From Deinococcaceae bacterium (lineage in GTDB: Bacteria; Deinococcota; Deinococci; Deinococcales; Trueperaceae), in the NCBI GenBank assembly GCA_040256005.1, contig JBDZWC010000092.1, forward strand, positions 1-12,277: 12,277 bases of DNA. Reading direction: 5' to 3'. A model generated the notes under the pieces. That model was not told the origin of the DNA and did not search any database. It saw nothing but the letters and a program-made list of their open reading frames with translations. The position numbers were made by a program, and so were the translations under genes. Positions 1,633 to 12,277 of the stretch are shown here, piece after piece; position 1 is the stretch's first letter; every line of letters starts with the position of its first letter.

Positions 1633-2738
1633 CGGTCCTTGATCTTGCCGAAGATGCCGCGCACCTTCTCGCCGACGGTCTCGTGCTCGTCAACGACCTC
1701 GCCCACCTCGACGGCGTACGCCTCGAGGTGCTCGCGGGCCTCGGACGACAGGCGGGTGGGCACGACCACCTTGGCGACGACCACGATGTCGCCTCTGCCC
1801 GACTGCCGCAGGCGCGGCATGCCACGGCCGCGCAGGCGGAACTGGGTCATCGGCTGCGTGCCGGCAGGCAGGTCCAGCGGCTCGGTGCCTTCCATCGTGG
1901 GCACCTCGAACGCGCCGCCCAGCGCGGCCTGCGCGATGCCGATCTCCAGCTCGTGCACGAGGTCGTCGCCGTCGCGCGTGAAATGGGGGTGTGGTGCCAT
2001 CGTGACGTAGACGTAAAGGTCGCCCTTGGGTCCGCCGTCCACGCCGGCGTTGCCGGCCTGGGGCACCCGTAACCGGTAGCCGCCGTCGATGCCCTTGGGC
2101 AGCGGCAACTCGACCTCGGCCTGACGCAGCTGCCGGCCTCGGCCACCGCAGACGGTGCAGGGCTCGGTGATCACCTGGCCGTCGCCGCGGCACTCGGGGC
2201 ACGTGCGCGTGGTCATGACGGTGCCGAACAGCGACTGCGCCTGCGTGCGCACCTGGCCCACGCCGCCGCAGGTGGGGCAGTCGTGTTTGCCGTTGGAACC
2301 GGGCTCCGCGCGTTCGCCGTGGCAGTGCTCGCAGGCCTCCATGCGCTCGACCGGCACCTTCACGGTCTCGCCCGCCCACGCCTGCTCGAGCGTGACTTTG
2401 ACCTCTACCTCGAGGTCCTCGCCGGGGTGCCCGCGGGTGCGCCCCCTACCCATGCCCATCCCGGCCGCGCTGCCGCCGAACACCGAGGCGAAGATGTCAA
2501 AGATGTCCATGCCCATCGGCATGTCGCCCACGCTGCCGTAGCGGTCGTAACGCGCGCGCTTCTCCTCGTCGGAGAGAACAGCGTACGCCTCGTTGATCTG
2601 CTTGAACTTGTCCTCTGCGGCCTTGTCGCCGGGGTTCCTGTCGGGGTGGTACTTGAGCGCCAGACGCCGGTACGCGGCCTTGATGTCACCCGCGTCGGCG
2701 TGACGATCGACCCCCAGGAGCGCGTAGTAGTCGGGCAT
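1590..2738 (-). CDS. dnaJ: Molecular chaperone DnaJ (class A, with zinc finger)
   Basis: J-domain with HPD ([10 protein letters not shown]), short G/F region, four CxxCxG motifs (CEHCHG, CPTCGG, CPECRG, CTVCGG), C-terminal GDLYV domain. Confidence 0.97.
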
Positions 2739-2746
2739 GCGCCGGC

Positions 2747-2752
2747 AGTATA
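2747..2752 (-). promoter_or_regulatory. -10 element (TATACT) 8 nt before the dnaJ ATG; leaderless or near-leaderless promoter
   Basis: Minus strand reads TATACT-gccggcgc-ATG, with no SD sequence. Confidence 0.65.
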
Positions 2753-2792
2753 ACTACGGCCCCTGGCGGCCGGGATGCGACGGGTTACTGCC

Positions 2793-3176
2793 TCAAGCCC
2801 CCTTGCGCTGCAGAGCCTGCAGGCGCTTGGCGGCCTCATCTGGATCCAGGTCGCCCTTCTCGAGGAGATCGAGCACCTCGGCGCGCTCCTCGCTGGTGTC
2901 CGGCTCGGCCTCGTAGCCCAGCGCCAACAGGAGCTTCTCGAAGCGCAGGCGGATCGTCGGGTAGCTCAGGCCGAGGATCCTCTCGACCTCCTTGAGGTTG
3001 CCGCGCACCTTCACGAATATGCGCAGGAACTCGAGGTTCTCCTCGGGCAGCATGGCGAACTCGTTCGGCGTGAAGCGCCCTTCGATGGTGACCCCGCTCT
3101 CCTCGCATTCGAGCTTCGTGACGAGCAACGGGCCGCCGGTGACGGGGCAGCGGGTGGGCATGGGGAGCATGGGCAT
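2793..3176 (-). CDS. DUF2089 family protein (degenerate Zn-ribbon + HTH + C-terminal SHOCT-like helix pair)
   Basis: 'CPVTGG..LECEESGVTIEGRF', 'GNLKEVERILGLSYPTIRLR' HTH, C-terminal 'EERAEVLDLLEKGDLDPDEAAKRL'. The start overlaps the upstream stop (TGATG). Confidence 0.9.
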   Translation of the reverse strand: MPMLPMPTRCPVTGGPLLVTKLECEESGVTIEGRFTPNEFAMLPEENLEFLRIFVKVRGNLKEVERILGLSYPTIRLRFEKLLLALGYEAEPDTSEERAEVLDLLEKGDLDPDEAAKRLQALQRKGA

Positions 3177-3664
3177 CAGATGACCTCGATGGTGATTTGA
3201 GTGCTGTCGCCGCCGGGTTCGGTGGCGTCCACGTCGACGATCTTGCCTTCCGCCAGGTCCTCGGCGGCGGTGTCGAGGAGCTCGCCCAGGTCGATGCCTT
3301 GGGCCTGCAGCTCCTCACGGGCGTTGTGTGGGAGGAAGCGGAGCGCGAACTTGGCGAGAGCGTAAGGGACGTTGACGTCCACGTTCGTGGCCTCGCCGCC
3401 CGCCTTGGTCGCTTCTACCTTGATGCGCACGAAGCGGGGTCGCTTGGCGCCCGGGGCCCGGGCCATGGGGAAGCTCGAACGAGCCAGTTCGAACGCGGGA
3501 TCGGGCGAGCGCGGCACCTGCGGGGCGCGCGGCATGGGCGGAAGCGGCAACGACTCCGCCGGCGTGGGCCCGAGCGCCTTGAGCAGGACCGCAGCCTGGT
3601 CAGCCGTGACCTTGCCGGCCGCGAGCATGTCGAGGATCCGGCGCCTGTCGTTGGAGCTAGCCAT
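3176..3664 (-). CDS. SHOCT-like (YvlB/LiaX N-terminal-like) domain protein, 162 aa
   Basis: N-terminal 'DRRRILDMLAAGKVTADQAAVLLKAL', Pro-rich linker, C-terminal alpha/beta region 'RFVRIKVE..NVDVNVPYALAKF..GKIVDVD..ITIEVI'. SD AGGAG lies 5 nt before the ATG; 8-nt overlap with the upstream gene. Confidence 0.8.
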   Translation of the reverse strand: MASSNDRRRILDMLAAGKVTADQAAVLLKALGPTPAESLPLPPMPRAPQVPRSPDPAFELARSSFPMARAPGAKRPRFVRIKVEATKAGGEATNVDVNVPYALAKFALRFLPHNAREELQAQGIDLGELLDTAAEDLAEGKIVDVDATEPGGDSTQITIEVI

Positions 3665-5072
3665 CGGCGCTCCTCTGCGTCATCACGTCGAGGTCACCGG
3701 TCGTCACCCTCAGGTCGAGGGTCGCCGAGCCGTCGCCCAAGGTGCCTTCGATCGAACCGCCGAGGCCCGAGCCGCTGCGGTGCAGTCCTGTCACCCGGGC
3801 ATCGGCGTCCCCGATCGAGACGCGGCCCTTCACCCGCGCGTTGACGTCGTGGGGCAGCCTGACGTTGAGGTCCCCAGCGCCGATGGTGACGATGTGGTAG
3901 CCCGGCCGCGGGTCGATTGTCGCGGTGAACTCTCCTGCGGTCATCCCGAAGTCCACGCCCTCGAGCGTGTCGGCGTTCAGCTCGCCGGCTCGCATGCGTC
4001 CTCGCAGGAAGCGCACGCCGCGCAGGGTGACATCGCCGGCGGTGGCTTGGAGGTTGAGGCCGTAGTCGGGTGGCACCTGGACCTTGAGCTCGCCGGACTT
4101 GAGGCTGGTCACGATGCGGTCGATGAACGTGCCGCGTTCGGGCATGAACTGGATGCGGTAGCCGTCGTCGGTCTCCTGGATGTCGAAGTGGCCCGGCCCA
4201 CCCTCCGCGATCGGCCCCGTGAGGCCGGGCACAGCCTTGACCTTCAGCTCACCTGCCAACATCTCGACCGAGATCCACTTGGTGCCGGCAGGGGCGATGC
4301 CGGCGCCTGGACGGGACGCCTCGTCTGGTTGATCCGCCGCCCCTTTCAGGTCTGCGGAGACGGCGCGCATCGCGTCCCTTGAGGTCCTGGCGGCATCGCG
4401 CGACGCGCGACGCGCTTCCCTGGCAGCCTCCCGCGCAGCGTCCCGCGCGGTCCGCATCGCCTCGCGGGCGGCGTCGCGGCCCTGCCTGGCGGCCTCCCTG
4501 GCTGCCTCGCGGGCCTTCTCCATCGCTTCCTGCGCCTGGTCTCGAGCGCGCTCCCGCGCCTCTTGCGCGGCCCTCAGCGTGGCGTGGAGAGACATCGCCT
4601 CTTCCATCCGCTTGTCGACGCGCTCGTCGTAGTGCGGCTCCGCGTCCTGTTCGGTCTCGCGGGTGTCTTGTGGTCTCGCTGCCGGGTCGCCTGGGCCGTT
4701 GTCCTGCGCCTGGGCGGCTGGTGCCGGTCGCTCTTGCGGGGGCTGTTCCGGTTCGGCCGGCTGTGGTTGCACGTCTGGCGCTGCAGCGGCGGAGGCGTTC
4801 GAGCTGGAGGTAGGGGCCGCCTGCGCAGCGTCCGCCGAGCTTAGCTGGCTCTCGTACTCCTCCTCGAACGCCCGGTCGAACTCGGCGTCCAGCTCCTCCT
4901 CGTTCCGGAGGTCGTCCTGACGATCGGCAGATGCTGAGCCTGCGCTACCCGCGGCAGCGAGCCTCTCACCGGCCGCGTCCACCTCGCGCAGGACCGCGAT
5001 CAGATGCTCGCCCTCCTCGGGCGTGATCTGCCCGTCCGCCACCATCTGCCTGATCCTGTCGACGTCGTTCAA
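3657..5072 (-). CDS. SHOCT-like N-terminus + disordered linker + 11-mer helical repeats + DUF4097/Toastrack-like beta-repeat domain, 471 aa
   Basis: N-terminal 'DRIRQMVADGQITPEEGEHLIAVL'; C-terminal recurring AGEL/AGDV/AGEF/AGDL/IGDA/TGDL beta-turn motifs and 'GTLGDGSATLDLRVTTGDLDV'. TTG start with SD AGGAG 6 nt upstream. Confidence 0.8.
   Translation of the reverse strand: MNDVDRIRQMVADGQITPEEGEHLIAVLREVDAAGERLAAAGSAGSASADRQDDLRNEEELDAEFDRAFEEEYESQLSSADAAQAAPTSSSNASAAAAPDVQPQPAEPEQPPQERPAPAAQAQDNGPGDPAARPQDTRETEQDAEPHYDERVDKRMEEAMSLHATLRAAQEARERARDQAQEAMEKAREAAREAARQGRDAAREAMRTARDAAREAAREARRASRDAARTSRDAMRAVSADLKGAADQPDEASRPGAGIAPAGTKWISVEMLAGELKVKAVPGLTGPIAEGGPGHFDIQETDDGYRIQFMPERGTFIDRIVTSLKSGELKVQVPPDYGLNLQATAGDVTLRGVRFLRGRMRAGELNADTLEGVDFGMTAGEFTATIDPRPGYHIVTIGAGDLNVRLPHDVNARVKGRVSIGDADARVTGLHRSGSGLGGSIEGTLGDGSATLDLRVTTGDLDVMTQRSADG
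4347..4577 (-). repeat. Seven 11-residue (33-nt) imperfect repeats in the 471-aa protein (aa 166-242)
   Basis: LRAAQEARERA|RDQAQEAMEKA|REAAREAARQG|RDAAREAMRTA|RDAAREAAREA|RRASRDAARTS|RDAMRAVSADL. Confidence 0.8.
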
Positions 5073-5142
5073 TGCCTTCTCCTGTCGGTGTTCGTTGGCG
5101 TCGGCGGGCCGCCGGTATGCGCTAACGAGCCGCTCGCTTCCG

Positions 5143-5331
5143 TTAGCGTGCCGCCGCGACTCGCGGAGCGGGTTCGCCGTCGAGGCTGGCGGCGAGTCGC
5201 CGCAGCCCTGTGGCGATCCGGCGTGCCAGCTGGGAACGACCAGCCTGGCTAGCCTGCGTCAACGCCTGGCGTTCTCTATGGAGCGCCTCGACCTTCTCGT
5301 TGCTCATCCGCATCAGGTGCTCGTACGACAT
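5143..5331 (-). CDS. Small hypothetical protein (62 aa), first gene of the operon, with a basic amphipathic C-terminal helix
   Basis: Perfect SD AAGGAGG (5338-5344) 6 nt before ATG 5331, directly after a near-consensus promoter; sequence MSYEHLMRMS...LARRIATGLRRLAASLDG. Confidence 0.8.
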   Translation of the reverse strand: MSYEHLMRMSNEKVEALHRERQALTQASQAGRSQLARRIATGLRRLAASLDGEPAPRVAAAR

Positions 5332-5351
5332 GGCCAACCTCCTTGGCGATG

Positions 5352-5380
5352 ATGCTAAGGCAGGGTTGAGAGATTGTCAA
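5352..5380 (-). promoter_or_regulatory. Sigma70-type promoter TTGACA-N17-TAGCAT for the four-gene operon
   Basis: -35 TTGACA at 5380-5375, 17-bp spacer, -10 TAGCAT at 5357-5352, then SD and ATG. Confidence 0.85.
5366..5380. promoter_or_regulatory. Candidate operator TTGA-N7-TCAA overlapping the -35 element
   Basis: ttga-gagattg-tcaa; further GTTGA half-sites lie upstream near 5397 and 5415. Confidence 0.4.
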
Positions 5381-5388
5381 GTCGCTGT

Positions 5389-6309
5389 TTATAGACGTTG
5401 AGGTTGTGCTTGCTGTTGACCCTTCGCGGCGCCCTCCTCTAGCGCCAAGATGTAAGCACCGTCTTCGAAGCCCGTGACGGTGTACCCGTGTGCCAGTAGT
5501 GTGGCGAGCGTCGCCCTGTGGGCGCTGCGCCAGGCGAGAGCCGCGTTCCGGTCGGCGAAAACGTCTAGGCCTTCGGCCGGCGCGGCGACGCGGACGAACG
5601 AAGGCCTGTCGCGCGGCCCACCGCGGCTCGCCTTGTTGAGGGCCCCGAGATCTTGCCTGGGTTCGCCGTCGGCCCCACACACCAACAGCCAGTGGTCGCT
5701 GGCGGGTCCGTCCGGTGCCGAGTCCTCGGCCGAGTCCTCGAGCGGCTCCGCGCCCGCCGCCCGGGACACGTCCCACAGCGCGAGCAGCCTGTCGCTGGCG
5801 ATCCCGCCACCCAGGGCGCCCGGCATGGGCCCGTAGACGTCGACCAAGTAGTCATGCGCGCGCGCCCCCAGGATGGAGAGGTTGAAACGCGCGTTCTTGG
5901 CGAGCAGGGGGTCGAAGGTCCAGCTGATCCACGCCAGCCCGTGGCGGCGGCACCATTCGGCTTGATAGCCCTTGAGCGCCCGACCCACGCCCGAGCTGCG
6001 GTGCTCCGGCAGGACGGCAGCCATGTGGGAGTGCATACCGGTCCCGGCCATGCCCCTACCGTGGGGCGCGGCGACGAAGCCGTACGCGAACCCCACCAGC
6101 TCGTGACCCACGAACGCGCCGATGACGAGCCCGCCGGCGTGAGCGGCGGCGGACATGGCCGTGGCCGGCACGATCTCGAGGTCCTCGACCCCCCACACCG
6201 TTCGCTGCAACGACTCGACCGGCCGCAGCTCGGCGACCGTGGACAGCTCTCGCAGCTCGACGTGAGCCCCGACGCGACCTATCTCGACGTCTACATCCGT
6301 GCCGGTCAC
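5389..6309 (-). CDS. GNAT family N-acyltransferase (COG3375-like, related to D-amino-acid N-succinyltransferases)
   Basis: 'LQRTVWG', 'HSHMAAVLPEHRSSGVGRALK' (acyl-CoA motif A), 'WTFDPLLAKNARFNL..LGA', 'YGPM', 'SDRL'. Confidence 0.88.
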   Translation of the reverse strand: MTGTDVDVEIGRVGAHVELRELSTVAELRPVESLQRTVWGVEDLEIVPATAMSAAAHAGGLVIGAFVGHELVGFAYGFVAAPHGRGMAGTGMHSHMAAVLPEHRSSGVGRALKGYQAEWCRRHGLAWISWTFDPLLAKNARFNLSILGARAHDYLVDVYGPMPGALGGGIASDRLLALWDVSRAAGAEPLEDSAEDSAPDGPASDHWLLVCGADGEPRQDLGALNKASRGGPRDRPSFVRVAAPAEGLDVFADRNAALAWRSAHRATLATLLAHGYTVTGFEDGAYILALEEGAAKGQQQAQPQRL

Positions 6310-6357: not shown

Positions 6358-6828
6358 CTAGTGACGGCTGGCCGATGGCGACGTACCGCTCAGGCTCAAC
6401 TGCGGCTCGTCCACCTCCCAGCCGGTGGCGCGTTCGATCTGCTCCTTCAGGTAGAGCCCGAGCGGCTTCCCGTCGATGAGCGGCGCCGGCACGTCCAGCA
6501 CTTCGCCGGTCTCCTTGCACACCACATGGTAGTGCGGCGTCACGTTGCTGTCGTAGAGCGATTCGCCGTTCGCACCCTTGAACTCGCACACCAAGCCGGC
6601 TTCGGCCAGCGCCGAGAGGTTGAGGTACACCGTCGAGAGGCTGAGGTCCTCGCCGCGCGCCTTCAGGTCTAGGTAGAGGCTCTCGGCGCTGACGTGCCTG
6701 TCCTTCTCCGACAGGTAGGCCAGTATCGCCTCGCGCGGACGGCTGTAGCGCAGCCCTCGGTCCTTGAGGACCTGTCGCACTTCGGCCCTACGTGGATCGC
6801 CGTGGTCAGCTTGTCCGTTGGCAGACAT
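6358..6828 (-). CDS. Fur family transcriptional regulator, PerR-like
   Basis: 'LKDRGLRYSRPREAIL', 'HVSAE', 'SLSTVYLNL', 'YDSN..PHYHVVC..GEVLDV'; H, D, H, H, D regulatory-site pattern as in PerR. Confidence 0.93.
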   Translation of the reverse strand: MSANGQADHGDPRRAEVRQVLKDRGLRYSRPREAILAYLSEKDRHVSAESLYLDLKARGEDLSLSTVYLNLSALAEAGLVCEFKGANGESLYDSNVTPHYHVVCKETGEVLDVPAPLIDGKPLGLYLKEQIERATGWEVDEPQLSLSGTSPSASRH

Positions 6829-6960: not shown

Positions 6961-7950
6961 TCAACCAAGCAGGTCGGCGACCGCGGCTCTCTCCTCCAGA
7001 AGCTCGGCTTCGGACGCCTTCATGCGCTTGCGAACGTCGTCCCCTAGCTCGAGGTCCCTTACGACCGTCACTTCGCCGCCGCTAATCGTCACCGGATACG
7101 AGTAGATGACGTCACCCTCGACGCCGTAAGCGTTGCCCGTCTCTCTGGCGGAGATCGCCATGCTGACCCAGTCGCCGTCGGCAGTCCCAAGGGCCCAGCT
7201 ACGCACGTGGTCTATCGCTGCGTTGGCAGCCGAGGCAGCGCTTGACGCTCCGCGGGCATCGATGATGGCCGCCCCGCGCTTCTGAACGGTAGGGATGAAG
7301 TGGTCGACGACCCATGCCTCGTCAACGAGGTCGCGCGCCGGCCTGCCACCAACGGTCGCGTGGCTGAGATCGGGAACCTGCGTGCTGGAGTGGTTGCCCC
7401 AGATGGTCATCCGCTTCACGTCCGCCACCTGCGAAGACGTCTTCACGGCGAGCTGGCTCAACGCGCGGTTGTGGTCGAGCCGGGTCATGGCACTGAACTG
7501 CTTCGGTGCTAGCTCGGGGGCGTTGCGCATCGCGATGAGGCAGTTGGTGTTCGCCGGGTTCCCCACCACCAAGACCTTCGCGTCGCGCGATGCACGTTCG
7601 TTGAGCGCCTTGCCCTGAGTCGTGAAGATCGCTCCGTTGGCCTGCAGCAGGTCCTTGCGTTCCATACCCGGTCCCCGTGGCCTCGAGCCGACCAGAAGGG
7701 CGTAATTGGCACCATCGAAGGCCTCGCCCGGGTCATCGCTTGCCCTGGTCGCGTGAAGCAACGGGAACGCACAGTCCTCGAGCTCCATGATCACGCCCTC
7801 CAGCGCCTTCATGGCCGGGGTGATCTCCAGGAGCTGAAGCTCGACCGGCTGGTCCTTACCGAGCATGTCGCCCGCCGCGATGCGGAACAAGAGCGCGTAG
7901 CCGATCTGCCCTGCTGCACCTGTGACGGCAACCTTCACTGGCTGTTTCAT
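6961..7950 (-). CDS. mdh: Malate dehydrogenase (type 2, Thermus/cytosolic-like)
   Basis: [66 protein letters not shown] lies 5 nt before the ATG. Confidence 0.98.
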
Positions 7951-8283: not shown

Positions 8284-9105
8284 CTAGGCCTGGTAGCCGA
8301 GCAACTCTAGGAGCCTCTGAAGTTCGTCTTGGTTGTGGAAGTGGAGCTCGATCTTGCCGCGGTCCGCGCCCGTGATACGCACTCTGGTGCCAGCATGCCG
8401 GCTTAGGTCCTCCTCCAAGCCGCGGTACCGCTCGCCCTCCCTCGTCTGTTCCTTGGAACGGGGCGCCGGGCGCTTGAGTCGCTCTGCCTGCCTTACCGAA
8501 AGACCCTTCGCAACGATCGTCTCGAACGCCCATAGCCGATCTTCGTCCGCCTGGGCCAGCACCGAGCGCGCGTGGCCCGCGCTGATCACGCCTTCTTCCA
8601 AGGCTGTAAGAACAGGCTCGGGCAGCGTCAGGAGCCTAAGAGTGTTCGCCACGGCGCTTCGGCTTTTGCCTACGGCCTGTGCCACCTTCTCCTGGTTCAG
8701 CCCGAAATCCAGGAGCTGCTTGTAGGCCCGCGCCTGCTCGACGTCGTTGAGGTCCTCCCGCTGTAGGTTCTCGACGATCGCGATCTCGAGCGCTTCCTGG
8801 TCAGTGAGGTCACGCACCAACGCCGGGACCGTCGCGAGCCCCGCCTGCTTGGCTGCCCTCAAGCGCCTCTCCCCGGCAACGACCTCGTAGCCGTCTCCGA
8901 CGGGACGCACAAGGATCGGCTGCAGCACTCCTCGCTCGGCAACGGATGCGGTCAGTTCGGCGATCGCCGCTTCGTCGAACCGCTTGCGCGGTTGCAGTGG
9001 CGACGCCGTCACCTTCGAAGTGGGCACCTGTTGTGCTCCGCCCTTGTCGGCTTTGGGCAGAAGGGCGTCCAGACCACGCCCCAAACCCCTAGGCTTCGCT
9101 GACAC
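8284..9105 (-). CDS. parB: Chromosome partitioning protein ParB/Spo0J
   Basis: GLGRGLDALL N-terminal peptide, QPRK.F, GVLQPI, AGERRLRAA CTP box, ENLQREDL, HTH 'GKSRSAVANTLRLL'. The GTG start at 9105 is chosen for SD GGAGG 9 nt upstream. Confidence 0.97.
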   Translation of the reverse strand: MSAKPRGLGRGLDALLPKADKGGAQQVPTSKVTASPLQPRKRFDEAAIAELTASVAERGVLQPILVRPVGDGYEVVAGERRLRAAKQAGLATVPALVRDLTDQEALEIAIVENLQREDLNDVEQARAYKQLLDFGLNQEKVAQAVGKSRSAVANTLRLLTLPEPVLTALEEGVISAGHARSVLAQADEDRLWAFETIVAKGLSVRQAERLKRPAPRSKEQTREGERYRGLEEDLSRHAGTRVRITGADRGKIELHFHNQDELQRLLELLGYQA

Positions 9106-9847
9106 GCTCGATGACCTCCTCGGCCAGCTCACGGTACGCGATAGCCCCCTGTGAGCTCGGCGCGTACTCGAATATCGATCTACCGTACGACGGTGCTTCG
9201 GCCAGGCGAACGGTCCGCGGGATGATGGTCCGGAACACCTGAGTGCCGAAGTGGCGCCTCACGTTCTCTTCGACCTCCTGCGAGAGGCGCGTGCGGCCGT
9301 CGTACATGGTCAACAGGATGCCGAGTATCCGAATGTCCCGGTTCAACGAACCCCGGACGCGCTCTACCGTCTCCATCATGCTGGCGATGCCTTCGAGCGC
9401 GTAGTACTCCGTCTGCAACGGGATCAGGAGCTGGTCGGCAGCGCCGAGCGCGTTGAGCGTGAGGGCGCCCATCGACGGCGGGGCGTCAATCACGATGAAG
9501 TCATAGGTGGGTCGCACGCCGATCAGGGACCGGCTCAAGAGCATCAGGTTGTCGCGACTTGCGTCCAGCTCGACGGCCGCGCCGGCTAGGTCGCTGGACG
9601 CCGCGAGCAGGTCCAGGTTCTCGACACCGGTGCCCGTAACGGCGTGACGAGCCGAAGACTCCCCAGAAAGCACATCGTAGATCGTCTGTTCTGGTCGCGT
9701 GATTCCCACGCCGCTGCTGGCGTTGGCTTGCGGATCGAGGTCTACCAGAAGGATCCGGCGTCGTTCTGACAGCGCAGCCGCCAGGTTCACAGCCGTGGTC
9801 GTCTTGCCGACGCCGCCTTTCTGGTTGATCACCCCGATGGTGGGCAA
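9089..9847 (-). CDS. parA: Chromosome partitioning ATPase ParA/Soj
   Basis: Deviant Walker A NQKGGVGKTTT, DLDPQANAS, IDAPPS, QTEYYALEG, LAEAPS.G. TTG start with SD GGAGG 6 nt upstream. Confidence 0.97.
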   Translation of the reverse strand: MPTIGVINQKGGVGKTTTAVNLAAALSERRRILLVDLDPQANASSGVGITRPEQTIYDVLSGESSARHAVTGTGVENLDLLAASSDLAGAAVELDASRDNLMLLSRSLIGVRPTYDFIVIDAPPSMGALTLNALGAADQLLIPLQTEYYALEGIASMMETVERVRGSLNRDIRILGILLTMYDGRTRLSQEVEENVRRHFGTQVFRTIIPRTVRLAEAPSYGRSIFEYAPSSQGAIAYRELAEEVIERVSEA

Positions 9848-10545
9848 GCGCGTCCTCCAGCCAGGCGCAGTGCGACGAGGCTACCATCGCGGCCCAGCGG
9901 ACGCTCATCTGCTACGGCGAGAACCGCCTCTCCTTGGGTAGAAGCCGAGGCGAACGCCCACATGGCCGGGCTTTCGACGTCCTCGTCGAACGTGCCGTGC
10001 CGGCGTGAACCGGGCGAGAGCCACTCGCTGAGGTCGTTCAACTCCTCGTGCCAGCTCGGGCCCCTGCGGCTGACCAGGTAGCAAGGGTCGCGATGGAGGT
10101 GTCGCGTCAGGCGCGCCACGGAGGCGAACGTGGAGACGGCTTGGGCCGTGACCACGTCGGCGCACACGCCGGAAAGCGCCGTGATGTCGGCCGTATGGAC
10201 GATCGCGTTGTCGAGATCAAGTCGGCCGGCGGCCATGTCGAGGAACGCTCCGCGCCGGCGCCGGCGCTCAACGAGGTGCACCGTGGCACCCGGGAGCTCG
10301 GCGGCGATGACTACCCCAGGCAATCCTGCTCCCGAACCCAGGTCAACGACGACGGCGCTCTGGCCCACGAGGTCCGAGATGACGGCCGCGTAGGCCCGCG
10401 CCTCCTCGATCAGACGATCCAGCTCGTCGATGCCCTTCGTGGACACCAGGTCCAGCGTGCCGTGGTACTGCTCCAACAGCCTCGCGTACTCACCCAAACG
10501 TGCGTTCGTCACACAGCTCCTCTGCACCTCTTCCTGGTTCCACAT
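9829..10545 (-). CDS. rsmG: 16S rRNA m7G527 methyltransferase RsmG/GidB (divergent; may start at GTG 10512)
   Basis: SAM motif VDLGSGAGLPG, LVE.R..R..FL, and canonical position between mnmG and parA. GTG 10512 has GAGGAG just upstream. Confidence 0.88.
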   Translation of the reverse strand: MWNQEEVQRSCVTNARLGEYARLLEQYHGTLDLVSTKGIDELDRLIEEARAYAAVISDLVGQSAVVVDLGSGAGLPGVVIAAELPGATVHLVERRRRRGAFLDMAAGRLDLDNAIVHTADITALSGVCADVVTAQAVSTFASVARLTRHLHRDPCYLVSRRGPSWHEELNDLSEWLSPGSRRHGTFDEDVESPAMWAFASASTQGEAVLAVADERPLGRDGSLVALRLAGGRACPPSG

Positions 10546-10710
10546 GACTCTGCCGCAGCTATCGCCCGCGGTAATGAAGGCGCCACGAAGTCTGGCGGCC
10601 CTGGGAGGACGGCACGGCCCTCGCAGGCGTGGCTACCTCCCCAGCCCCGCTTGCGATCGCCATGCGACACGAACGTCTACGGTCAGCTCCGCCGCGCCTA
10701 GGCCGGCGGA

Positions 10711-10726
10711 TGTTTCACGTGAAACA
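10711..10726. promoter_or_regulatory. parS: parS centromere-like site
   Basis: Perfect TGTTTCACGTGAAACA; the palindrome extends to 20 bp (GATGTTTCACGTGAAACATC, 10709-10728). Confidence 0.97.
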
Positions 10727-10823
10727 TCTTCTCCCACGAAGGACTGAGATGGATGACCGGAGACGACGTGCGAGTAATGGCAGCGACCACGGCGGCTCGA
10801 ACCGCTTATACCTGCCGGGTAAA

Positions 10824-10849
10824 CCCCGTCGTTCGGCGCCGAAATGGGG
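10824..10849 (-). terminator. Possible weak terminator hairpin after mnmG
   Basis: Minus strand CCCCAT-TTCGGCGCCGAA-CGACGGGG followed by only TTTA, about 25 nt after the mnmG stop. Confidence 0.3.
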
Positions 10850-10873
10850 ACAGGCGAGATCTGAGCTTCGTGC

Positions 10874-12277
10874 TCAGCTCTGCGCGACGTGCTCGCGCTG
10901 CTTGCTCCGCAGGTGCACCAACAGCGCGGCGACGTCGCTGTCCCTCACGCCCCGCAGGCGCTGAGCCGCACCCACCGTTGCCGGCCGGGCCCGCTCGAGG
11001 GCCTCCCGGCCCTCGCTAGACAGGCTCGCGATTGAGCCGAAGTCGACGTGGCCCAGGTGCCTCTGTTCGTAGTCGGAGCGTTCGGCGAGATGCTTCTCGG
11101 CCCGTTCGATGTACGGCGCGTAGCGGACCAGCACCTCGACCTTGGCCCTCTCTCTGGCTGTGAGTTCGGGTGAACCTGGGCCGACCAGCGCCACCACGGA
11201 GTCGTAGCTCTCACCTGGGCGGCACATCAGCTTCGTAGCTGGGTCGCCCGCCACGCGGGCGGCGGCCAAACGCGCGAACTCCGCTCGCACACGGCGCTCC
11301 GACGCGCTCACCTCGGACACGCGCTCGTCGGACACGAGACCCCATGAGTGCCCCACGCCGACCAAGCGCTCGTCGGCGTTGTCTTGGCGGTGAAGGAGCC
11401 GATGCTCGTTACGCGAGGTGAGCATGCGATAGGGCTCGTTGAGACCGCCGCGGACGAGGTCGTCCAGCATCACGCCGATGTAGGCCTGATCGCGGCGCAG
11501 CGTCACCCTGTCCATACCCTGTGCGTGACGGGCGGCGTTGACGCCGGCGATCAAGCCCTGCGCAGCGGCCTCCTCGTAACCCGAAGTCCCGTTGATCTGA
11601 CCCGCCGAGAACAGCCCCGGCAGCCGACGCGACATCAGCGTAGTGTCGAGCTGGGATGGCTCGAGAGCGTCGTACTCGACGGCGTACGCGTAGCGATGGA
11701 TAACGGCGTCCTCGAAGCCGGGCAGTGTGCGGATCATGTCGTCCTGGAGGATGGGGGGCATCGAGCTCGAGAAGCCCTGCAGGTAGAGCTCGCTGGTATC
11801 GACCCCGTCCGGTTCCACGAAGAGCAGGTGCTGGTCCTTGTCCGAGAACCGCACCACCTTGTCCTCTATGGAGGGGCAGTACCTAGGACCCGTGCCCTCG
11901 ATCTCGCCGCCGTACATCGCCGACTCCGCGAGGTTTCTCAGGATCAGTTCGTGCGTGGCGGGCGTCGTACGGGTGAGCCAGGTAGACGTGCTGGCGGCTC
12001 TGCGACCGGGGTAGCCCGTGAAGCTGTCGGGCGGGTCGTCCGACGGAACCTCGTCCAGGACGCTCAGGTCTACCGAGTCGGCCCTGATGCGCGGCGGGGT
12101 GCCGGTCTTCAGGCGCAGCAGTTCGTGCCCGGTCTGGATAAGGCTCTTGGACAGGTGCCTGGCAGGTGGCTCGCCCTGCCTGCCGCCCGGCCGGCTCTGC
12201 TTGCCGTACCAGACGTCACCAGCGAGGAAGGTCCCGGTGCAGAGCACGACGCTTGGAGCCGAGAGGTCACGGCCGAC
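10874..12277 (-). CDS. mnmG: tRNA uridine-5-carboxymethylaminomethyl modification enzyme MnmG/GidA (5' part outside window)
   Basis: TGTFL, RLKTGTPPRI, GPRYCPSIEDK, YAVEYD, AGQINGTSGYEEAAAQG, EPYRMLTSR.E.RL. The frame is open to the window edge. Confidence 0.98.
   Translation of the reverse strand, partial: VGRDLSAPSVVLCTGTFLAGDVWYGKQSRPGGRQGEPPARHLSKSLIQTGHELLRLKTGTPPRIRADSVDLSVLDEVPSDDPPDSFTGYPGRRAASTSTWLTRTTPATHELILRNLAESAMYGGEIEGTGPRYCPSIEDKVVRFSDKDQHLLFVEPDGVDTSELYLQGFSSSMPPILQDDMIRTLPGFEDAVIHRYAYAVEYDALEPSQLDTTLMSRRLPGLFSAGQINGTSGYEEAAAQGLIAGVNAARHAQGMDRVTLRRDQAYIGVMLDDLVRGGLNEPYRMLTSRNEHRLLHRQDNADERLVGVGHSWGLVSDERVSEVSASERRVRAEFARLAAARVAGDPATKLMCRPGESYDSVVALVGPGSPELTARERAKVEVLVRYAPYIERAEKHLAERSDYEQRHLGHVDFGSIASLSSEGREALERARPATVGAAQRLRGVRDSDVAALLVHLRSKQREHVAQS

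Follow-up and report, generated by a model that had tools for sequence, protein, structure and literature searches.

A DUF2089 operon of Deinococcota with three SHOCT-like proteins and a candidate tandem operator

Results

A four-gene operon whose products share a motif

The DNA analysed here is a stretch of 12,277 nucleotides (nt) from a Deinococcaceae bacterium (GenBank assembly GCA_040256005.1, contig JBDZWC010000092.1), called the window below, and its subject is a four-gene operon on the minus strand, flanked by a GNAT gene and dnaJ. Pattern scanning and conservation identify a sigma70-type promoter at 5352-5380, with TTGACA (5380-5375) and TAGCAT (5357-5352) separated by 17 nt. Its position about 50 nt 5' of the first open reading frame (ORF) is kept in relatives, while the number of such sites in the window (1, against 0.5±0.7 in shuffles) is weak evidence by itself. 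The first ORF encodes 62 amino acids (aa; 5331-5143) from an ATG behind AAGGAGG; a program-made ORF list starts it at a TTG instead (64 aa). After a gap of 70 nt come a 471-aa SHOCT-like and Toastrack gene (5072-3657), a 162-aa gene joining a SHOCT-like domain to a domain called X (3664-3176), and a 127-aa DUF2089 gene (3176-2793), all three recognised from their ORFs and Pfam matches. The first two of these overlap by 8 nt and the last two by 1 nt (TGATG). These coordinates confirm a reading made earlier from the letters alone (the sequence-only reading), which had described, with no strand given, one promoter followed by a 62-aa ORF and three overlapping ORFs. A contig from an independent run agrees with the window over 4686-5472 with two differences, and the promoter region is therefore no assembly artefact. 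Contigs from RNA runs cover 16-30 of 30 bins across the whole window, but a DNA origin is not excluded for them, so they are silent on co-transcription.

The motif that the sequence-only reading had quoted from the last three proteins is present in their translations and matches PF22746 in each, and Pfam upholds their SHOCT-like, DUF4097 and DUF2089 identities. We refer to the motif as the tag. The 471-aa protein consists of a tag (residues 1-30), an acidic linker, Ala/Arg/Glu helical repeats and a C-terminal Toastrack domain (DUF4097; PF13349, 24.2 bits against a cut-off of 22.9), a layout like that of YvlB and LiaX. Its tag scores 24.7 bits against PF22746, or 26.1 in the genome search, both under the cut-off of 27, and is matched at E 8e-8 by our own profile seeded with this motif. 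In the 162-aa protein the tag (residues 2-30; 35.0 bits, 36.8 in the genome search) is followed by a Pro-rich linker and the X domain (78-161). The 127-aa protein has a degenerate zinc ribbon (PF22747, 49.1 bits against 27.6), a helix-turn-helix (HTH; PF09862, 74.4 bits against 33.4) and a C-terminal tag (26.8 bits, 29.5 in the genome search). These three are the only PF22746 matches in the whole genome (96.8% complete), and classical SHOCT (PF09851) has no match at E<=0.1 in the operon proteins. None of the four proteins has a predicted transmembrane (TM) helix, the highest 19-residue Kyte-Doolittle (KD) mean being 0.08-1.24, and Pfam finds no kinase, PspA or PspC within the operon; on both points the earlier description holds. 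Pfam and hydropathy likewise reveal no sigma factor, anti-sigma factor, phosphorylated anti-anti-sigma factor or membrane-anchored Toastrack protein in the operon.

A candidate operator over the promoter

Promoter alignment reveals a candidate DUF2089 operator at 5366-5402 (minus strand), made of two imperfect palindromes 22 bp apart. The consensus TTnAnA-N3-TnTnAA occurs twice in tandem, here as CTCAAC-gtc-TATAAA (5402-5388) and as TTGACA-atc-TCTCAA (5380-5366), the latter including the -35 hexamer. The interval of the sequence-only reading ended at 5380, inside this element. The central TGTAAA-N7-TTGACA is also an inverted repeat, which makes the dimer register ambiguous. With promoters aligned on the -35 hexamer and positions counted from the first T of TTGACA, the conserved bases outside the hexamers are T-21, T-13, A-10, A-9, A-8, T+11 and A+13. 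The upstream palindrome (5389-5402, minus strand) overlaps the stop codon of the GNAT gene.

We collected 121 loci, namely the window, 40 from related genomes and 80 from GTDB, and counted 82 of them, after removing 5 loci of paralogues, 12 duplicates and 22 whose upstream DNA was shorter than 3 kb. The tandem palindrome lies 5' of 79 of these 82 operons. A matrix trained on 18 loci, none from the genus of the window, was run over 6.2 million genome positions and found no second good site; the only other score above 14 was 15.4 at C201:9219, and a larger regulon in this genome was rejected for that reason. When only the flanks were scored, the window promoter ranked first of the 282 TTGACA sites in the genome (15.0, next -5.4). 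The top-scoring site of a whole locus stands within 450 nt of the first gene in 62 of the 66 held-out loci. Three of the four misses are paralogues with a YNT rather than a YPT recognition helix, and the fourth scores 14.9 at the right place. A matrix-free test gave the same picture: in 35 held-out promoters, anchored only on the TTGACA that precedes the small ORF, 211 of 245 key bases of the flanks agree, whereas composition shuffles reach 83±7 of 245 and 78 other promoter-like sites in the genome 97 of 546.

Presence of the element was also compared with presence of the regulator. PF09862 occurs in 38 of the 41 related genomes, 37 of them over the cut-off. A strict operator pattern matches once in this genome and 0-3 times per genome across the 41, with no match in three well-assembled genomes that have no DUF2089 over the cut-off (G013, G019 and G027; 96-100% complete). 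Most of the extra strict matches belong to the operon's 5' part on a separate contig, or are scattered sites with no module gene in AT-richer genomes. Where the operon is split, in G033, the motif stands before the partner genes, about 180 kb from the DUF2089 gene. A metagenome scan with a tight pattern returned five loci, and the four with downstream DNA all run into the operon; they are close kin, with no reach across phyla. One Thermus scotoductus locus (L112) has DUF2089 alone with the operator; its upstream 32-aa ORF combines the beginning of the small protein with the end of an additional gene described below, so that it is probably a recent deletion, and we rejected it as a case of co-segregation. 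Compared by eye with the consensus sequences of CIRCE, HAIR and CtsR boxes, the element matches none of them.

An AlphaFold model of the DUF2089 protein (predicted local distance difference test score, pLDDT, 87.5) is consistent with a DNA-binding role. Its residues 38-88 align to DosR (Z 8.1, root-mean-square deviation 1.7 over 50 residues), and the modelled HTH also aligns with NarL and sigma-4 domains; against PDB sequences DUF2089 has no match. Candidate operator and HTH fold together back the regulator role that had been proposed for this protein. The tandem palindrome stands before 79 of 82 operons and has no second copy in this genome, which makes DUF2089 a probable autorepressor whose regulon would hardly extend beyond its own operon. 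We consider it likely that its dimers bind both palindromes. With slightly less assurance we take the effect to be repression and not activation, since the operator overlaps the -35 hexamer of a promoter that is near consensus.

The motif might instead be the site of an activator (DUF2089 working at -35 in class II fashion) or of another global factor, or be simply an unusually conserved strong promoter. An HTH resembling sigma region 4, half-sites resembling TTGACA and a DUF2089 gene without the motif (locus L060) would all fit such an account. However, the flank bases are position-specific beyond composition and unique among the 282 TTGACA sites, the motif is missing from the paralogue group, and a near-consensus promoter hardly needs activation. 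We regard this alternative as improbable.

Two further observations concern the element elsewhere. An operator-promoter copy precedes a fused pair of ABC exporter genes at L156:480-2421 (G003:C97) and at L157 (G005:C43), that is, in two of nine same-genus genomes with enough upstream DNA; the other seven, including this genome (orthologue at C150:9778), have no such copy. The promoters of the paralogous DUF2089 loci with a YNT helix (L042, L068, L069 and L071) are without the main operator, and three of these four AT-rich loci have TATAAG or CATAAG boxes around TTGACA. Specificity may possibly have changed along with the recognition helix.

Tags with class-specific faces

Tags were registered on the turn Gly, leaving out 10 DUF2089 motifs and 1 Toastrack motif that were out of register. 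On a helical wheel, positions -10/-6/-2 and +4/+8 form flank A, and -8/-4 and +10/+13 form flank B; coiled-coil geometry, rather than the model, leads us to infer that these are two faces of an antiparallel hairpin. In the model of the DUF2089 protein the helices of the tag span residues 95-107 and 112-126. Composition differs sharply by class. Position -6 is L, I, V, M or F in 86/86 X-class and 77/77 DUF2089 tags and in 11 of 82 Toastrack tags, whereas +10 is hydrophobic in all 86 X-class and all 82 Toastrack tags and in only 10 of 77 from DUF2089. Position -4 is hydrophobic in every Toastrack tag (82/82), R or K occupies -8 in 81/86 X, 78/82 Toastrack and 7/77 DUF2089 tags, and D or E occupies -2 in 72 of the 77 DUF2089 tags. 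DUF2089 tags are thus hydrophobic on face A and mostly polar on face B, Toastrack tags are the reverse, and those of the 162-aa class are hydrophobic on both. In all classes the tags are net acidic (-1.8 to -3.6) and nearly without aromatics, and their acidity argues against binding to anionic lipids. Mutual information between motifs, computed over 66-73 paired loci, placed variable surface positions in its top pairs; with kinship not controlled, it is uninformative.

The non-equivalence of the three tags suggests a polar, face-to-back docking and is compatible with the hetero-oligomerising motifs that the sequence-only reading had proposed. Tag-mediated control by the partner proteins is plausible. 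Docking of face B on face A fits because the charges of R-8 and E-2 are complementary and because both reduced modules exist (below).

Variation of the module and a fifth gene

The gene-neighbourhood survey that the sequence-only reading had proposed found the order Toastrack, X, DUF2089 conserved in 75 of 82 Deinococcota loci; by our own profiles all three proteins carry the tag in 66 of 82. Neither partner is invariable. Two genomes keep Toastrack and DUF2089 while a search for the X gene found none, which weakens the idea of the 162-aa protein as an obligatory adaptor. Thermus loci have X and DUF2089 without Toastrack, and Toastrack was not found in four genomes whose loci are without it (searched with one Thermus query), so it too is less firmly an obligatory part. 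Face-to-back binding allows both reduced forms. In three loci the Toastrack gene is repeated.

In 44 of 82 relatives a fifth gene is inserted after X and before DUF2089, and many of its copies encode a hydrophobic helix (KD up to 2.5); no copy was found in this genome. It encodes 85-205 aa with an X-like layout (for example L153:4517-4951, L100 and L097) and is fused to X in L143; similar stand-alone genes follow X in two Bacillota loci (L072 and L073). Comparison of the fifth gene with X by hhalign gives a probability of 0.3-6.5% and an E of 0.0016 at best, a lead only, for a weakly supported homology. Elsewhere in this genome, a short PspC-domain frame (C163:18343-18513, locus L186) lies beside a UbiX-like gene. 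The claim of a soluble module thus stands for the operon here, which has no TM helix, but not for the family: judging from these gene contents, 'soluble' is a lineage-specific trait.

These membrane-prone neighbours bear on an account in which DUF2089 autoregulates while the tags serve for localisation: each protein would be tethered separately by its tag, to the inner face of the membrane or to a shared outside partner (the fifth gene product, PspC or a protease), and the tags would not bind one another. The parts of PMC11237479 on SHOCT-like domains predict inner-leaflet anchoring for them, and the tag occurs in YvlB of B. subtilis, a species where PF09862 (DUF2089) has no match. The fifth gene and the PspC-domain frame would supply candidate partners. 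Against tethering stand the acidity of the tags and their few aromatics, the failure of one common receptor to explain three class-specific surfaces, and the missing fifth gene in this genome. We judge tethering unlikely.

The X domain and the small protein

The X domain has the order beta-beta-alpha-alpha-alpha-beta-beta (162-aa model, pLDDT 83.7). Its structural neighbours in the Atlas are labelled PF30712 and are also fused to XRE HTH regulators, which ties X to transcription control elsewhere. Fold searches gave no Foldseek match at E<=0.001 and VIA as the best at Z 4.7, by which a new fold is not shown, and a 162-aa profile had a single match, at E 0.19, among PDB sequences. Loci of Bacillota and Actinomycetota contain recognisable X domains (E 7e-9 to 2e-3).

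Conservation indicates that the 62-aa ORF is a real gene, whose family has no Pfam match. The protein is predicted to form two helices, the C-terminal one cationic and amphipathic (residues 34-51, moment 0.70, net charge +3), and 35 of 39 family members share such a second helix, with a mean net charge of +2.1. A profile of the ORF matches 42 of 82 loci, with further copies seen by eye. The family comprises 587 cluster representatives at E<=0.001 (nearly all 51-93 aa among the 150 listed) and, over 39 members, has no consistent Pfam match; Atlas feature matches of 0.89-0.90 point to unnamed clusters and are leads only. Between the small ORF and the Toastrack start (5073-5142, minus strand) lie GC-rich hairpins, also found with differing sequence in the same-genus loci L034, L037 and L039, and differential mRNA stability is possible there.

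The zinc ribbon, domain fusions and neighbouring genes

Two of the four zinc ligands of the DUF2089 ribbon are Cys (C10, T13, C24, S27). Cys10 is invariant in 63/63 aligned sequences, only 20 of which retain the second and fourth Cys, and elsewhere in the order members of two further families have no ribbon Cys. Within the phylum the ribbon (residues 10-27) decays stepwise, from four Cys in thermophiles to two here and none in two other families (see L053, L055 and L060). A domain-fusion search returned one match, an Armatimonadota protein (P0151) in which the DUF2089 ribbon and HTH are joined to a solute-binding domain (PF13458/PF01094) that replaces the tag; among 8000 scored candidates, longer proteins, no fusion with a partner gene appeared, which is a weak test.

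The window also encodes, by Pfam, Hsp20 (159-542), miaA (617-1555), dnaJ (1590-2738) and a Fur family protein (6358-6828); the genes at 6961-7950 and 8284-12277 are, as named from their translations, presumably those for malate dehydrogenase, parB, parA, rsmG and mnmG. In 27 of 79 loci, mostly of one family, dnaJ lies within 700 nt 3' of the operon, and no terminator was found in between here; being optional, it was rejected as a fifth member of the operon. A TATACT 8 nt before the dnaJ ATG (2738-2760, minus strand), with no evident Shine-Dalgarno sequence, resembles the leaderless -10-motif starts of this phylum.

Ribbon and neighbour both enter an alternative in which DUF2089 senses directly, through the thiol or metal state of its ribbon or through proteotoxic stress near dnaJ, while the products of the remaining three genes work as effectors, for example as peptide sponges or as scaffolds of a chaperone-like kind. 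The invariant Cys10 and the dnaJ linkage speak for it, as does the acidic Toastrack linker (31 D/E against 10 K/R, with a length that varies widely among relatives), which recalls the charge-dependent peptide binding of LiaX described in the LiaX sections of PMC6936494. The patchy retention of the second and fourth Cys weighs against it, as does the lack of any ribbon Cys in members of two other families, and dnaJ has its own TATACT and is linked mostly inside one family. To us a direct sensor seems as improbable as an activator at -35.

Discussion

The association of these domains has already been published (PMC11237479), as the sequence-only reading had supposed. The present analysis adds the candidate operator, the class-specific tag faces, the 62-aa family and the lineage-specific fifth gene. 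In its passages on these domains, PMC11237479 divides DUF2089 into a zinc ribbon (ZnR), HTH and SHOCT-like domain, lists a pair of DUF2089 followed by SHOCT-like+X, and describes YvlB as SHOCT-like plus Toastrack; 'Deinococc' does not occur in its main text. Our operon resembles that pair, as listed there, in that both architectures are adjacent and coupled (here by a 1-nt overlap), and differs from it in that the regulator comes last, reversing the order, and in having a soluble SHOCT-like+Toastrack gene and a 62-aa gene in addition. The description there names no operator for the pair and proposes that the tag is a membrane anchor, whereas we find a candidate operator. A four-gene context of sigma factor, anti-sigma factor, TM-Toastrack and DUF2089 (PMC11237479, Text S2.4) likewise couples Toastrack to DUF2089, but here there is no sigma factor, no anti-sigma factor and no TM anchor.

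The B. subtilis yvlABCD and enterococcal liaXYZ operons also encode a SHOCT-like+Toastrack protein (for YvlB, the domain listing of PMC11237479), and the LiaX sections of PMC6936494 report that LiaX, too, has neither secretion signals nor TM helices. Expression of those operons depends on sigma-W or LiaR, and PspC and holin-like membrane proteins are among their products; the present operon differs in having a dedicated one-component regulator inside it and no membrane protein. Our literature searches, which left subscription journals largely outside reach, found no functional study of DUF2089 or of a SHOCT-like domain; they returned no paper with Deinococcus and DUF4097, none with PF22746, PF22747 or PF30712, and no mention of SHOCT among the Deinococcota papers listed.

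How might such an operon be controlled? In the explanation we favour, DUF2089 dimers would bind two operator sites over the -35 hexamer and shut their own operon. The 162-aa and Toastrack proteins would dock, with their matching tags, onto the C-terminal tag of DUF2089; for this, DUF2089 would offer an acidic face A (-10/-6/-2, +4/+8), Toastrack a face B (R-8, -4, +10, +13) and the 162-aa protein a face of each kind. The tag contacts would then shift under stress, likely damage to the envelope, and repression would be lifted. Autorepression via the tandem operator is the best-supported of these steps. That the tags bind one another face-to-back is, on the residue patterns, an evenly balanced proposition. 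Envelope stress as the signal, borrowed from YvlB and LiaX, could equally well prove right or wrong, and the explanation taken as a whole has in our view a little under an even chance.

Several lines connect such proteins to the envelope. Two-hybrid data in PMC9239133 show YvlB binding PspA, LiaH and Yvl proteins, and the LiaX sections of PMC6936494 report that LiaX uses its N-terminal domain to bind daptomycin and LL-37 while its C-terminal domain inhibits LiaFSR. We base the envelope link on these interactions of YvlB with PspA and LiaH and of LiaX with the two peptides, together with the operator before the ABC exporter genes in two of nine genomes. Induction data in PMC12791056 show garvicin KS inducing Listeria Toastrack genes, and in the iron-dependent stimulon table of PMC10434189 a Bacteroides DUF2089 pair changes 2.0-fold (p 0.087).

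A number of observations weigh against the favoured explanation. Regarding the operator, the half-sites look much like the -35 hexamer, and some of the conservation therefore reflects promoter strength; a looser pattern matches four times in G013, a genome without DUF2089; the DUF2089 gene of G033 is itself without an operator (L060, score 4.1); and since the loci are kin, all counts overstate. With respect to docking, the Bacillota DUF2089 tags of L072 and L073 are hydrophobic at -4 and +10 and break the pattern, which an actinobacterial one fits, so that two of three from outside Deinococcota fail; position -4 is Leu in the DUF2089 tag of the window itself; and the portion of PMC3581485 on a classical SHOCT domain indicates that this one apparently did not oligomerise in a test. 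As to the envelope, the operon is without any membrane protein, and the whole genome has no PspA over the cut-off, while T. thermophilus and D. radiodurans each have one.

With no kinase or anti-sigma factor present, the term partner switching, under which the operon had first been described, holds by analogy only. PB1-type front-to-back docking (Aux/IAA-ARF) and the RsbV/RsbW switches offer a functional analogy, in which a small common domain with one-faced and two-faced forms would control a transcription factor. No homology to these systems is claimed, and here there is no kinase, phosphatase or sigma factor. By this analogy, SHOCT-like hairpins could be polar docking modules with two faces, a bacterial counterpart of PB1 assembly. 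The repressor (DUF2089) and the sensor (Toastrack), whose tags have one face each, would form a chain together with the two-faced tag of the 162-aa protein, and the make-up of that chain would set operator occupancy. Signalling would then run without a kinase, through a shared domain of 30 residues, and the cationic 62-aa protein would act as an effector that binds the membrane. We hold this broader idea tentatively, as somewhat unlikely.

DUF2089 and the SHOCT-like domain are widespread, and this locus offers a candidate operator at exact coordinates, a regulon of nearly one operon, and predictions of tag pairing at the level of residues. Since DUF2089 is present in Thermus thermophilus and Deinococcus radiodurans, the choice between a membrane anchor and a protein dock is testable in genetically tractable hosts. 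The role of the SHOCT-like domain bears in turn on tag-carrying YvlB and on its relative LiaX, a modulator of resistance to daptomycin and peptides.

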